IMG/VR virus record: IMGVR_UViG_3300037067_002413
Coordinates: 1 to 64,000 of that record
Reading direction: 5' to 3' (one strand)
DNA: 64,000 nt
Source: a virus
Lineage: Duplodnaviria; Caudoviricetes
Shown here piece after piece: positions 59,865-64,000 of this stretch (the stretch's first letter is position 1; every line of letters starts with the position of its first letter). The notes below the pieces were generated by a model. The model was given only the letters and a program-made list of their open reading frames with translations, did no database searches and was not told where the DNA came from. Both the position numbers and the translations under genes were made by a program.

Positions 59865-60567
59865 ATGCCTTCATTTCGTGCGAAACCTGTAGTCATAACT
59901 GCTGAACGTCTCATTAAACCGTTGATTATCCAAACCCTTGAGGGTGACATGCAGGGTAATATAGGGGACTGGCTTATCAAAGGAACCAACGGCGAATTCT
60001 ATCCATGCAAGGATGATATATTTCGTAAAAAATATGAACCAATCGACAAGGACGGCGTTCACGCTTTGACGGCTACGGGTCCAGGAGAAGAGTATGATGG
60101 ACCCGCGACTATATCGTTTCCTGTTCGCAATGCAGTGGAGTTAAAATAATGGGGTGGGCAAGTGGTTCAGAATTGGCAGAGGATGTTTGGAACGTGGTTC
60201 GTCCCCTAATACCAGGAAATAAACGAAAGAACGCTGCGGCCTCAATCGTTGAACTCTTCGAGTATTGCGACTGCGATACTTTGTATGAGGCTGAACAATT
60301 AGTCGCGGATTCTGGTTTGCCAGGATACGCTAGGGAGGATGTCGAATGAATTTACCAGGAGCAAAACGGTTGACGTTTATGATGCCCAAGGAAGTGGCGG
60401 ATCAGAATACAGAAGACCTTCTCATTATGCTTGAAGGTTTTCCGATGCCAGAACCCGATGAATCAGGCATCATTCAATTCGATTTCGTTGGCAGGGATAT
60501 TTCGTTCCAGCCAATTGTCGATCGCATCATGGGTACGCCAGGCGTCAGCGTGTTTCCAGTATTTTGA
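59865..60567 (+). CDS. Three small phage proteins (59865-60149 with TLEG.M....GDWLIKG..GEFYPCK motif; 60149-60349; 60346-60567)
   Basis: Common phage motif; coupled ORFs. Confidence 0.65.
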
Positions 60568-60579
60568 CAAATGGAAAAT

Positions 60580-60652
60580 TGCACTGTAGTTCAGTTGGTA
60601 GAACACCGCACTGTTAATGCGATGGTCCCTGGTTCGAGTCCAGGCGGTGCAG
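60580..60652 (+). tRNA. tRNA-Asn(GTT)
   Basis: TGCACTG/CGGTGCA acceptor, GTTC/GAAC D stem, CT-GTT-AA loop, CCTGG-TTCGAGT-CCAGG T arm; no encoded CCA. Confidence 0.9.
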
Positions 60653-60738
60653 CTTGCGTCGGAAAGGATGGGGACTGCGGCTCTAGCCGTGATGGAGTGC
60701 CTCATCCGTCCGACGTTTTTTCGTCTCCAAAGGTGACT

Positions 60739-61536
60739 ATGGAACGGCTTGCTCGATACGATGTTTATAATGTACCACTTGCTGATATTTGGATTGATCC
60801 AGATTTCAATTGCCGAAATGCCTTTACCTTCCAGTCTGTTAAGGGACTGGCGGATAACATCGAACAAACCGGACTTGAGATTCCAGTTATTCTTCAACGA
60901 CGAGAGGATAGTCAGATAGAATTTTCGGAACCATTCCGTTTGGTTGCCGGTTTTCGTCGTTTGGCAGCCGTGAAGACGTTTCTGCATTGGAATTCTATTC
61001 CTGCTAATGTTCGAGAAAACTTGAATGACCGAGCAGCAGAGATTCTAAATCTAACAGAGAATTTGGAACGCGAAGACCTCAATCCGCTGGAACAGGCACA
61101 AGCACTCACTCGTAGATTTCCGCCTGGAAGTTCGTTACGAACGATCGCTAAGGAGATGCACCGGGACGCGCATTGGGTACACCAACGCCTGCGGATTATG
61201 CAATTGCCAGAGGAGTTGCGTGAGAAGGTAGCGGCTAAGTTGCTCACACTCTTGGACGTAGACGTACTCGTGAAACTTCCACCAGAGGAGCAAATCGAGG
61301 CAGCCAAAGAAATTATTATTGCCAGAGGAAAGCGAACACGAAAACTCAACGTCAATCCGAAATTTCGGCGAAAGTTTAAGTATCGTCGTGGAAAGGAAGA
61401 GATCAATTTTAGAATTGGTCAACTGATGGAGGCGGGATTGAGTGGCCTCGTAACACGATTCGGTGCCTGGTGTGCGGGTTATATCAGTGATGACGAGTTC
61501 GATCAGGATATTTTGCAAGAAACACATAAAATATAG
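60739..61536 (+). CDS. ParB/Spo0J-like protein
   Basis: N.R..F....LA..I...GL..PV; LVAGFRRL.A; EN.EREDLNPLE.A; HTH. Confidence 0.88.
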   Translation: MERLARYDVYNVPLADIWIDPDFNCRNAFTFQSVKGLADNIEQTGLEIPVILQRREDSQIEFSEPFRLVAGFRRLAAVKTFLHWNSIPANVRENLNDRAAEILNLTENLEREDLNPLEQAQALTRRFPPGSSLRTIAKEMHRDAHWVHQRLRIMQLPEELREKVAAKLLTLLDVDVLVKLPPEEQIEAAKEIIIARGKRTRKLNVNPKFRRKFKYRRGKEEINFRIGQLMEAGLSGLVTRFGAWCAGYISDDEFDQDILQETHKI

Positions 61537-61574
61537 ACCAGATTTCACCTATTTTTACGTCGTCCTATTAGAGG
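61533..61574 (+). promoter_or_regulatory. Class II promoter-like element, copy 2 (heads the Y RNA/Ro60 operon)
   Basis: 38/42 identical to the reverse complement of 21496-21537; ends within the first bases of Y unit 1. Confidence 0.75.
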
Positions 61575-61630
61575 GCCGATGTGGATGGGTTATCTTGGAA
61601 CGACTCCCCACCCGCACAAACTTGCCCTCT
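61570..61630 (+). ncRNA. Y RNA-like unit 1 (free-standing)
   Basis: AGAGGGC(C)GA...TTATC...TTGCCCTCT terminal stem with bulged C. Confidence 0.8.
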
Positions 61631-61635
61631 TTTAT

Positions 61636-61760
61636 GGATGCCGTAGTTCAGTTGGTAGAACACTAAAACCGCTGACCAACCTTTGCCCTGCAAGGGCCAA
61701 ATGGAAAGCGTTATCACCTGTTAAGTGAGAGGTCGCGGGTTCGAGTCCCGCCGGTATCCG
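61636..61760 (+). ncRNA. tRNA-Asn(GTT)-Y RNA chimera (unit 2)
   Basis: Full cloverleaf with a ~50-nt insert (61665-61714): CGCT..CCA..TTTGCCC-tgcaa-GGGC(C)AAA TGG..AGCG-TTATC. Confidence 0.8.
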
Positions 61761-61766
61761 TTTTAT

Positions 61767-61893
61767 GTACGTTGTAGCTCAGCGGTAGAGCACAAGTCAA
61801 AGAACCGCTTTCAAGTTTCTTGCCCTATGGGCCGAACTGAAAGCGTTATCAACAAGGAACTTGTGGTCGTGGGTTCGAGTCCCGCCAACGTGC
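61767..61893 (+). ncRNA. tRNA-Y RNA chimera (unit 3)
   Basis: GTACGTTG/CAACGTGC acceptor; CAAGT/ACTTG stem; loop contains CGCTTTCA..CTTGCCC-tat-GGGC(C)GA..TGAAAGCG-TTATC. Confidence 0.8.
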
Positions 61894-61896
61894 TTT

Positions 61897-61993
61897 GGGT
61901 GTGAAGCTCAATTGGTTGAGCACCCGTTTTCACCATTAACTCGAAAGGGTCGAATGAAAATGGTTATCGTAGGTTCGAGTCCTATCGCACCCG
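61897..61993 (+). ncRNA. tRNA-Y RNA chimera (unit 4)
   Basis: GGGTGTG/CGCACCC acceptor; anticodon arm replaced by CCGTTTTCA..ACTC-gaaa-GGGT(C)GA.TGAAAATGG; TTATC forms the variable loop. Confidence 0.75.
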
Positions 61994-61995
61994 CT

Positions 61996-62059
61996 CCGGG
62001 CCGATGCTGATTGGTTATCACATCTTTATTGTCAAACACCAATCGCACACCTTGCCCGG
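61996..62059 (+). ncRNA. Y RNA-like unit 5
   Basis: CCGGGC(C)GA TGC.GATTGG TTATC ... CCAATC GCA ... TTGCCCGG. Confidence 0.8.
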
Positions 62060-62066
62060 CAATATA

Positions 62067-62159
62067 CTTGGACCGTGGAAGTTCGTTTATTGACGGCCAT
62101 TTCCGAAGTTGTACTTTAGAAATGGCCGCCCATAACGATTGTCCAACTTTTTGTCCAAG
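62067..62159 (+). ncRNA. Y RNA-like unit 6, with internal hairpin
   Basis: CTTGGAC(C)GT...TTATT...TTGTCCAAG; inner CGGCCATTTC/GAAATGGCCG. Confidence 0.7.
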
Positions 62160-62169
62160 CCTTGGATAT

Positions 62170-62244
62170 TTGGGCCGTCGCTGAATCCGTTATCTATGTC
62201 ACTCATAATGACTCCAGTATCCCGGACCAGCACCTTTTGCCTGA
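62170..62244 (+). ncRNA. Y RNA-like unit 7
   Basis: TTGGGC(C)GT.GCTG..TCCG TTATC ... CGGA.CAGC ... TTGCCTGA. Confidence 0.7.
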
Positions 62245-62257
62245 GTCATTGAATGTG

Positions 62258-62314
62258 TGGGCCGACGTTCGTGGGTTATCAGGCATAAGACACCCACGGC
62301 AATTTTCTAGCCTA
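62258..62314 (+). ncRNA. Y RNA-like unit 8 (weaker terminal stem)
   Basis: TGGGC(C)GA..TTCGTGGG TTATC ... CCCACGG ... TAGCCTA. Confidence 0.65.
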
Positions 62315-62329
62315 ACCTTTGGAGAAAAC

Positions 62330-63928
62330 ATGAAGACTTTAGCCAAGCACGTTTCAGTTCGGATTACTCCGCAGACTCGACCGATTCCTGGAAAGAATCA
62401 AGAGCAGAACAACGCAGGTGGGTATACGTTCGTTCTGGATTGTTGGGGACGACTTCAACGGTTTTTGATTCTCGGTTCCGAGGGCGGGACGTATTATGTC
62501 GGCGAACAAAAGTTGACGGAACAAAATGCGTCCGCCGTTGCTGAATGTGGTGAAGAAGACGCGGCCAAAGCCGTGGAGATGATCGCCTCGATCAGCGAAT
62601 CGGGCCGTGCTCCAAAGAATGATTCTGCTATTTTCGCCCTGGCACTTTTGGCGAGTCAGGCGGACGATACTGTTCGACGACTGGCATTGGCTGCGTTGCC
62701 GCGTGTTTGCCGCACGGCTACCCATTTGTTCCAATTCGTTGCGAACTGCAAGGAACTGCGCGGTTGGGGCCGTGGATTGCGTGAGGCGGTCGCCGGCTGG
62801 TACAACGAGAAGCCGGTTGACAAACTCGCCTATCAGGTGACGAAATACAGGAACCGTGCCGGCTACACGCATCGGGATATTCTCCGGCTTAGTCATCCGA
62901 AGACGGGCGATTACGAACGAAACAATCTATACCGTTGGATTACGAAGGGGACTCTCCCAGACGAAATCACGGTTGCGTTTAATCCGTTGGCTTTGATTTT
63001 TGGCTTGGAAGCAGCAAATGCTCTTTTGCCTACCGACGTGAAGGGGATGATCGGACTGATCGAACTTTACGGGTTGACTTTGGAGCATGTGCCCAATCAT
63101 TTCCTTAGCAGCCCGGCTGTATGGGAAGCCTTGCTTCCGAATCTGCCGCCCACGGCAATGATCCGAAATCTGGGTAAGATGACCAGCGTCGGCCTTCTGA
63201 AACCACTATCGGTATCTGCGAATATGGTTTGCAACGTGCTGACCAATCCCGATCGCCTTCGTGGTGCTCGCGTGCATCCACTATCCGTCTTGATTGCCAC
63301 CGACACATACAGTCAAGGCCACGGCGTCAAGGGGTCGCTGACATGGCAGCCGGTGGGACAAATCAGGGACGCCCTTGAGGAAGCATTTTATTCTGCCTTT
63401 GACGCCGTGGAGTTGACGGGTAAACGACATTTGTTGAGTCTGGATGTGTCCGGTTCGATGGGCTGGTCGTTACTTGCCAACACTAGATTGAGTGCTGCCA
63501 AGGCCGCCGCTTGCATGGCGATGGTTACGCATCGACTTGAGCCGCAAACTCATGTGATGGGTTTCTCCAACGATCTGGTTCCGATCGACATTTCCAAGAA
63601 GGAACGTCTCGATGCCTTGGTAACCAAGATTGGTCGTATTCCGATGGGCGGAACTGATTGTAGTCTGCCCATGCTCTACGCGGCTCAACAGAAGTTGGAC
63701 GTGGATGCCTTTGTGGTATACACGGATAACGAGACTTGGGGTGGGAAGATTCACCCCATTCAAGCTCTCAAGATTTACCGTCAAGCGAGCGGCATCAACG
63801 CCAAGTTGATTGTCGTCGGAATGACCGCCAGCCAGTTCACGATCGCCGATCCTTCTGATGCCGGCATGTTGGACGTTGTTGGTTTTGACGCTTCCTGCCC
63901 AGCCGTAATGGCTGATTTCGTTCGTTGA
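62330..63928 (+). CDS. rsr: Ro60 / TROVE-domain RNA-binding protein
   Basis: N.AGGY.F....W..L.RFLILGSEGGTYY; KY.NR.G..H.D.LRL.HP; AMIRNLGKMT; vWA MIDAS DVSGSM, GGTD, YTDNETW; GGAG RBS at 62321. Confidence 0.95.
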   Translation: MKTLAKHVSVRITPQTRPIPGKNQEQNNAGGYTFVLDCWGRLQRFLILGSEGGTYYVGEQKLTEQNASAVAECGEEDAAKAVEMIASISESGRAPKNDSAIFALALLASQADDTVRRLALAALPRVCRTATHLFQFVANCKELRGWGRGLREAVAGWYNEKPVDKLAYQVTKYRNRAGYTHRDILRLSHPKTGDYERNNLYRWITKGTLPDEITVAFNPLALIFGLEAANALLPTDVKGMIGLIELYGLTLEHVPNHFLSSPAVWEALLPNLPPTAMIRNLGKMTSVGLLKPLSVSANMVCNVLTNPDRLRGARVHPLSVLIATDTYSQGHGVKGSLTWQPVGQIRDALEEAFYSAFDAVELTGKRHLLSLDVSGSMGWSLLANTRLSAAKAAACMAMVTHRLEPQTHVMGFSNDLVPIDISKKERLDALVTKIGRIPMGGTDCSLPMLYAAQQKLDVDAFVVYTDNETWGGKIHPIQALKIYRQASGINAKLIVVGMTASQFTIADPSDAGMLDVVGFDASCPAVMADFVR

Positions 63929-64000
63929 TTTAGCGGGGCTTCGGTGTGTGCAAAAGCACTGAACCTATAACCGCACGGTTGATGACTAGGACTGCCTCAG

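Follow-up and report, generated by a model that had tools for sequence, protein, structure and literature searches.

Candidate hairpin-type Y RNAs in an array upstream of a phage Ro60 gene, and their likeness to animal Y RNAs and nematode sbRNAs

In 2014, Chen et al. reported likely Y RNAs, small RNA partners of the Ro60 protein, beside the Ro60 gene in more than 250 bacteria and phages, and linked the sequence GNCGAAN0-1G to GGUCCGA (PMC4201824). In the transfer RNA (tRNA)-like type, YrlA, the same work described a conserved YUAY that starts the variable loop, with a pseudouridine at nucleotide 23, and the crystal structure of Salmonella YrlA later placed a kink of about 30 degrees at U23-A24 of this YUAY (bioRxiv 10.1101/312249). 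Hairpin Y RNAs without a tRNA domain also bind Ro60, in Salmonella, M. smegmatis, D. radiodurans and the Thermus phage phiLo (PMC4201824, PMC12135203); those published have escaped bioinformatic discovery (PMC4201824), and phiLo carries two of these Y-like RNAs upstream of its Ro60 gene, where they bind both phiLo Ro60 and the host PNPase (PMC12135203). As to the animal RNAs, one review excludes homology between the Y RNAs of bacteria and the vertebrate clades (PMC4726728). The present study concerns eight units with a Y RNA signature that precede a Ro60 gene in the virus record IMGVR_UViG_3300037067_002413 (Caudoviricetes), of which the first 64 kb out of 146 kb were analysed (the window). 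Bacterial Y RNAs share little with animal ones beyond the docking motif, according to reviews. To our knowledge, discussion of UUAUC has been confined to DNA replication in animals, and no paper was found that equates the YUAY of YrlA with this animal pentamer.

The Ro60 (Rsr) gene of the window (62330..63928, plus strand) encodes a protein of 532 amino acids, P0001, which is matched by the Pfam domains TROVE (6.6e-45) and vWA_Ro60 (6.9e-67). The eight units fill the 750 bases 5' of its start, on the same strand and from 14 to 760 nucleotides upstream. A search of the window for GGGCCGA, any ten nucleotides and TTATC, allowing at most one mismatch, returned six matches, all between 61573 and 62280 on the plus strand (exact matches starting at 61573, 61829, 61998 and 62259; matches with one mismatch at 61694 and 61947), while 100 shuffled windows averaged 0.30 matches and never reached six. 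When a looser pattern was run over the whole 146-kb record, one further match was found outside the array, on the opposite strand. The first-pass annotation had read this signature in units 1, 5 and 8, with CTTGCCC ending units 1 and 5, and the sequence bears this out; the pentamer was, however, too narrowly assigned to those three units, as it is seen in all eight (in unit 6 as the variant UUUAUU).

Units 1, 5, 7 and 8 are plain hairpins of 61-77 nucleotides. The proposal that units 1, 5 and 8 are minimal Y RNAs of about 60 nucleotides without a tRNA domain stands, since they measure 61-66 nucleotides, have neither T nor D arm and score 62.1, 53.1 and 24.1 bits, respectively, with R1, a covariance model made from 48 free-standing viral units that include units 1 and 5 themselves. 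Unit 1 (61570..61630, plus strand) carries GGGCCGA at 61573, TTATC at 61590-61594 and a 3' strand ending in CTTGCCC; it has a lower stem with a bulged C and an upper stem of nine base pairs, folds at -22.9 kcal/mol (z -2.45) and differs from its orthologue in the related locus L007 by compensatory changes. Unit 5 (61995..62060, plus strand), with GGGCCGA at 61998, TTATC at 62015-62019 and the 3' end CTTGCCC, folds with a z of -3.51 and has orthologues in L007, L008 and L009 whose upper-stem changes are compensatory. In unit 8 (62256..62316, plus strand) GGGCCGA stands at 62259 and TTATC at 62276-62280, followed by a weaker 3' strand (CTAGCCT); this unit reads GUGGG-UUAUC as vertebrate Y RNAs do, and it is conserved in L007 and L008. 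Unit 7 (62169..62245, plus strand; R1 24.9 bits) is likewise free-standing, with a spacing of 11 nucleotides and a longer loop. Unit 6 (62067..62159, plus strand) is a long hairpin with a degenerate signature, GGACCGU then UUUAUU, which scores 7.2 bits with R1 and is very stable (-38.9 kcal/mol, z -5.9); at the corresponding place the sequence of L007 differs. It is likely that units 1, 5, 7 and 8, together with the degenerate unit 6, are genuine small hairpin-type Y RNAs and predicted partners of the phage Ro60.

The hairpins have a common plan. A lower helix of 6-7 base pairs is followed by the bulged C and two more pairs, then by an asymmetric internal loop, in which a single 5' base faces about six 3' bases, and then by an upper helix of nine base pairs closed by G-C, directly after which come UUAUC and a loop of 10-25 nucleotides. 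Among free units UUAYC is near-invariant in this position and the apical loop is variable. The alignment of the 48 free units shows no variation at G, C and C in the docking motif, at U, U, A and C in the pentamer, or at U and G in the 3' strand. Over these units pairing in the lower helix amounts to 96.6%, both sides having changed in four of eight pairs, and its bulged C is invariant; in both respects the units agree with the structural description of Y RNAs, whose 5' and 3' ends pair in a Ro60-binding helix with a bulged C. For the two-helix structure as a whole, 89.8% of cells pair, against 68.7% in shuffles, and the covariation score reaches 0.60, against 0.21 in shuffles and at most 0.16 when partners are slid, with both-side changes in 12 of 17 pairs. 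The predicted core of the family is thus made of four parts: the bulged docking helix, the asymmetric loop, the one-turn clamped helix and UUAYC.

The pentamer itself is left unpaired by RNAalifold. A pairing of UAUC with a GAUA-like partner in the loop was considered and rejected because no covariation was found: GAT occurs in 36 of 110 loops that follow TTATC and in 11 of 30 that follow TTACC, the corresponding figures for GGT being 32/110 and 13/30. Separately, a loop of approximate sequence YUKYUAAGAU after the pentamer is common to a subset of free units (for example L009 1732-1795, L012 2339-2400, L014 2405-2467, L071 1699-1763), and GAT stands at loop position 7 in 15 units; the units with this loop may form a sub-family with a common effector.

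A search with P0001 gave 160 Ro60 loci, 80 viral (42-80% identity) and 80 bacterial, the latter from Planctomycetota, Myxococcota, Verrucomicrobiota, Chloroflexota, Armatimonadota, Gemmatimonadota and others. The arrays are found again in the nearest relatives (L007, L008, L009, L010 and L012), where the upper helix has changed in a compensatory way. R1 found 130 matches in the window and the viral loci taken together and 108 in the bacterial set, and all 238 matches in the 160 loci lie on the Ro60 strand; in the window, its matches are confined to the array. Chen et al. accepted as Y RNAs those candidates that lie within a few kilobases of a Ro60 orthologue and on its strand, which, given the position of the units and the strand of the R1 matches, would include the present ones. 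Among named phages, such units occur in Mycobacterium phage Catera and Gordonia phage Cashline. The closest Ro60 from a cellular bin (63% identity) is that of L087, a contig in a Thermoguttaceae genome bin, with three mini-Y matches just upstream (1979-2478); this could either hint at a planctomycete host or reflect a phage contig binned with a Thermoguttaceae genome.

Whether the pentamer belongs to the module was approached in two ways. The first started from the 5' docking motif alone and counted TTAYC at every offset. On the Ro60 strand of the viral loci, TTAYC followed at 10 nucleotides in 116 cases, at 11 in 37, at 9 in 14 and at 12 in 10, with about 2-4 per other offset; on the opposite strand counts were near background, with a small bump of 11 at 10 nucleotides. 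The bacterial loci, 74 of which (out of 80) have at least one unit, gave 174 at 10 nucleotides, 30 at 9 and 13 at 11 on the Ro60 strand and about two elsewhere, the opposite strand being flat. In the second approach modules were defined by the closing of the lower helix alone, the pentamer not being presupposed: TTAYC was present in 49 of 90 such modules on the Ro60 strand of the viral loci against 0 of 29 on the opposite strand, and in 95 of 148 against 1 of 53 in the bacterial loci. Allowing for the opposite-strand background, most or nearly all real modules carry the pentamer. It is therefore not special to units 1, 5 and 8, being general to bacterial and phage Y modules, those fused to tRNAs included.

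The same arrangement is written in the consensus lines of the animal Rfam families, whose layout is nearly that of R1 and which read GGUCCgA, ten nucleotides and UUAu in Y_RNA (RF00019) and GGUCCGG, ten nucleotides and UUAUC in the sbRNA family RF01656. The animal motifs that the first-pass annotation had cited hold at this level, and its claim that the phage pentamer keeps the animal spacing agrees with both consensus lines. Alignment to the animal models, whose gathering cut-offs are 38 bits each, gave weak recognition of the window units: with RF01656, 27.2 bits for unit 1 (E 0.0035 in 1 kb), 20.5 for unit 5 and 14.2 for unit 8, which reached 19.5 bits with RF00019. Sister units, on the other hand, pass the cut-off. 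With RF01656, 25 of 50 viral records had a match with E of at most 1 and four exceeded 38 bits; among 40 bacterial genomes of 1-12 Mb the figures were 25 and nine, with scores up to 43.1 bits and E-values down to 2e-8 per genome, and no match passed the cut-off in 14 control genomes. The eight top matches that were mapped all fall on Ro60-adjacent units. RF00019 gave E-values of at most 1 in eight of the 50 viral records (best 31.7 bits), none above its cut-off. Eight of the above-cut-off RF01656 calls were confirmed by cmscan at gathering thresholds: L116 180-247, L091 1741-1807, L125 1365-1434, L111 1429-1496, L020 4458-4525, L023 4281-4353, L054 2161-2229 and L083 2337-2400. In an Anaerolineales genome the aligned sequence matches the worm consensus through the docking helix, UGGGUUAUC, CCCA and CAACUUG. 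Automatic annotation would therefore label such bacterial and phage RNAs as worm RNAs. Judged by their sequences, the window units are a well-supported new example of hairpin-type Y RNAs, part of a large family whose core is close to that of animal Y RNAs and sbRNAs.

Several observations weigh against this assignment or against reading much into the animal likeness. No window unit belongs to RF01656 or RF00019 at the cut-off, the best score being 27.2 bits (unit 1) against 38. Units 7 and 8, taken alone, fold no better than shuffled sequence (z -0.92 and +0.32). The seeds of R1 were picked using the pentamer, so that R1 scores are partly circular, the docking-motif and lower-stem tests being independent of it. 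The UG-CA core of the animal upper stem is simply the majority state in the phage and bacterial family, where it covaries freely. No sigma-70-like promoter was found at 60500-64000 of the window. Finally, nematode sbRNAs were not seen to accompany the Ro60 orthologue of the worm in vivo (PMC4726728), which weakens the idea that Ro60 itself reads UUAYC.

What the first-pass annotation drew from the likeness must be separated into its parts. The likeness to animal Y RNAs is real on the sequence comparisons above, but the motif behind it is general to bacterial and phage Y modules and had been noted before, as YUAY (PMC4201824), to which the pentamer of the window units corresponds. A conserved ligand for UUAUC, also proposed, need not be invoked, since in Salmonella YrlA the structure is kinked at the central UA of the matching YUAY. 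A bearing on the origin of animal Y RNAs would depend on common descent, which is here inseparable from a shared constraint imposed by Ro60. The four-part core is best seen, on present sequences, as the conserved core of Ro60-partner RNAs and not as an animal speciality, because the same core occurs beside Ro60 in many phages and bacterial phyla as well as in animal Y RNAs and nematode sbRNAs. A bolder possibility, somewhat less likely than not, is that the phage and bacterial mini Y RNAs are true homologues of animal Y RNAs and sbRNAs, their core having travelled with the Ro60 gene, plausibly in phage-borne cassettes.

The alternative that survives best is convergence, in which phage, bacterial and animal Y RNAs would have been fitted independently to the same conserved Ro60 surface, so that the likeness would say nothing of the origin of animal Y RNAs. 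P0001 scores 423 bits with a Protein Data Bank (PDB) chain titled RO60 (9nen), 411 with X. laevis Ro60 (1yvp) and 408 with D. radiodurans Rsr (2nvo); by these scores it is about as similar to the vertebrate as to the Deinococcus protein, and the protein surface is therefore strongly conserved, as convergence would have it. (The Thermus phage protein is far, at 49 bits, and no paper was found for the RO60 entries 9nen, 9nep, 9nf8 and 9nfa.) Beyond majority states, the interior of the upper stem and the loop share no sequence with the animal RNAs, and the review cited above (PMC4726728) denies homology with the vertebrate clades. The shared features nevertheless exceed the known Ro60 contact: in the lower helix it is reportedly the 5' strand that Ro60 mainly touches (PMC4201824), and what is shared includes the G-C clamp, UUAYC, the 10-nucleotide spacing and the CA...ACUUG of the 3' strand. 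In addition, phages move the Ro60 gene along with its RNA, so that a way for the two to be transferred jointly is evident. With these points on its two sides, convergence is a possibility of some substance that we regard as doubtful.

Homology of the core also has to be set beside a second explanation, in which the pentamer is the leftover of a tRNA-derived ancestor, marking the junction between the anticodon-stem equivalent and the variable loop, and the free hairpins are RNAs of the YrlA type from which the tRNA body has gone while the hinge was kept. The window itself holds both forms, since units 2-4 (61636..61993, plus strand; signature at 61694, 61829 and 61947) are tRNA-shaped RNAs that carry the same Y module, with TTATC, in the anticodon arm. 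Units 3 and 4 score 45 and 43 bits with the tRNA model RF00005, and units 2-4 have acceptor stems, D arms and T arms of their own, with the strands of the Y module in swapped order. In the scan of the window, the YrlA model RF02553 reached 28 bits (cut-off 69) on these tRNA-shaped units, across the junction of units 2 and 3, and gave no match on units 1, 5 or 8, which hence fall outside the YrlA family. Besides units 2-4, the presence of a conserved YUAY where the variable loop of YrlA begins (PMC4201824) favours a tRNA-derived pentamer, as does the usual place of the pentamer 22-23 nucleotides before the T loop in units that have one. That the pentamer is the whole variable loop was considered and set aside: the usual distance is the one just given, and the pentamer fills the loop in only a handful of units, which tells against the tRNA derivation as well. 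Moreover, in 199 of the 369 distinct units no T loop lies within 60 nucleotides, and the free hairpin is therefore the commoner form; the direction of change is not readable from these data. On balance we find it rather unlikely that the pentamer is a relic of this kind.

A third explanation concerns function. Unit 8 ends 14 nucleotides before the Ro60 start codon and adjoins a GGAG ribosome-binding site (62256-62329), an arrangement that is similar in L007, L008, L010 and L012. The units, or at least the last of them, could thus be a structured leader of the Ro60 messenger RNA, which Ro60 would bind to control its own synthesis. Besides the closeness of unit 8 to the start codon, this agrees with the finding that in 18 of the 46 viral loci having an upstream unit the nearest one ends at most 60 nucleotides before the Ro60 start, and that a search of the array for terminator-like sites gave none. 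(A short U run, CUCUUUUAU, stands between units 1 and 2 at 61627-61636 and recalls the U tail of animal Y RNAs; it was not flagged by the terminator scan.) In M. smegmatis, however, processing of a single precursor yields the upstream Y RNAs, which build up as small RNAs bound to Ro60 (PMC4201824), 9 of 55 viral loci have their units exclusively downstream of the Ro60 gene, and the tRNA-shaped units between the hairpins offer sites for RNase P and RNase Z. A leader as the explanation of the array is accordingly unlikely. The two roles are in any case compatible: because the last unit stands so near the start codon, here and in those 18 loci, control of Ro60 translation through it is possible and would not exclude a Y RNA role. 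The last explanation, a chance likeness of short motifs, has in its favour that the window units score below the Rfam gathering cut-offs, and is effectively refuted by the six pattern matches against 0.3 expected, by the peak at 10 nucleotides on one strand only in 160 independent loci, by the lower-stem test, and by RF01656 E-values down to 2e-8 per genome with the mapped top matches at Ro60 loci and no control genome of 14 passing the cut-off.

If the hairpins are Y RNAs, as we favour, a pathway for their production and use can be outlined. They are probably transcribed together with the three tRNA-shaped units and the Ro60 gene, the array being transcribed toward Ro60. In L010 a perfect (12/12) sigma-70 promoter, TTGACA-16-TATAAT, lies at 2242-2269 and ends seven nucleotides before the first of three free Y units, and transcription would therefore start at about the first base of that unit. 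For the window, the reads that contain 61400-63000 belong to DNA runs from landfill, groundwater and sediment metagenomes, no RNA run being listed among them. Cutting of the tRNA-shaped units by RNase P and RNase Z could release their neighbours. Ro60 would then dock on the lower helix, and the one-turn upper helix would act as a fixed spacer holding UUAYC at a set distance and angle. UUAYC may in turn serve as a hinge or kink, as a contact for Ro60, or as both, directing the variable loop toward a host factor or the cavity of Ro60. With loops that differ, a single Ro60 could, in the infected cell, be gated or be tied to various host factors, PNPase for example, so that five hairpins with different loops and three tRNA-shaped units might provide several adaptors for a single Ro60.

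The same pentamer, at the same 10-nucleotide spacing over the same bulged helix, is near universal beside Ro60 in phages and many bacterial phyla, which points to a role tied to the Ro60 particle. An RNA of 60 nucleotides with a phage or bacterial Ro60 is a tractable system for testing what the motif does. The large family of mini Y RNAs is covered by no public model, and the nematode sbRNA model calls some of its members above its own cut-off. If homology proved true, UUAYC would go far back in the history of the Ro60 particle, whether as a hinge or as a contact with protein, and its additional use in animal DNA replication would have come later.

Compared with the described systems, the window units come closest in kind to YrlB of Salmonella and M. 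smegmatis, Yrn2 of D. radiodurans and Yrl1 and Yrl2 of phiLo. These, as is predicted of the window units, are small partners of Ro60 that lack a tRNA-like domain; their genes adjoin that of Ro60 in the same orientation, frequently with several at a locus and 5' of the Ro60 gene, and a CGA(A) docking motif lies in the 5'/3' stem. They differ from the window units, as far as a comparison by description allows, in that the latter conserve both strands, the bulged C, the clamp helix of nine base pairs and UUAYC; for the published hairpin Y RNAs no sequence family or model has been described. Nematode sbRNAs (RF01656, ceN72-3_ceN74-2; PMC4450293) have the layout of the window units to within about one nucleotide and share the CA...AACUUG of the 3' strand, but they are encoded in animals, where every gene has its own putative RNA polymerase III promoter, their loops are about 70 nucleotides longer and they are needed for DNA replication (PMC4450293). 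Vertebrate Y RNAs (RF00019) share with the phage units the docking helix with its bulged C, the 10-nucleotide spacing, GUGGG-UUAU (in unit 8) and the Ro60 partnership, predicted in the case of the phage; they are longer (83-112 nucleotides), have large internal loops and carry a 3' U tail to which La binds, and their GUG-CAC replication motif is not fixed in the phage family. YrlA (RF02553) has the docking motif, YUAY at the equivalent place and a position beside Ro60 in common with the phage units, and is defined by T, D and acceptor-like arms, which the free units do without.
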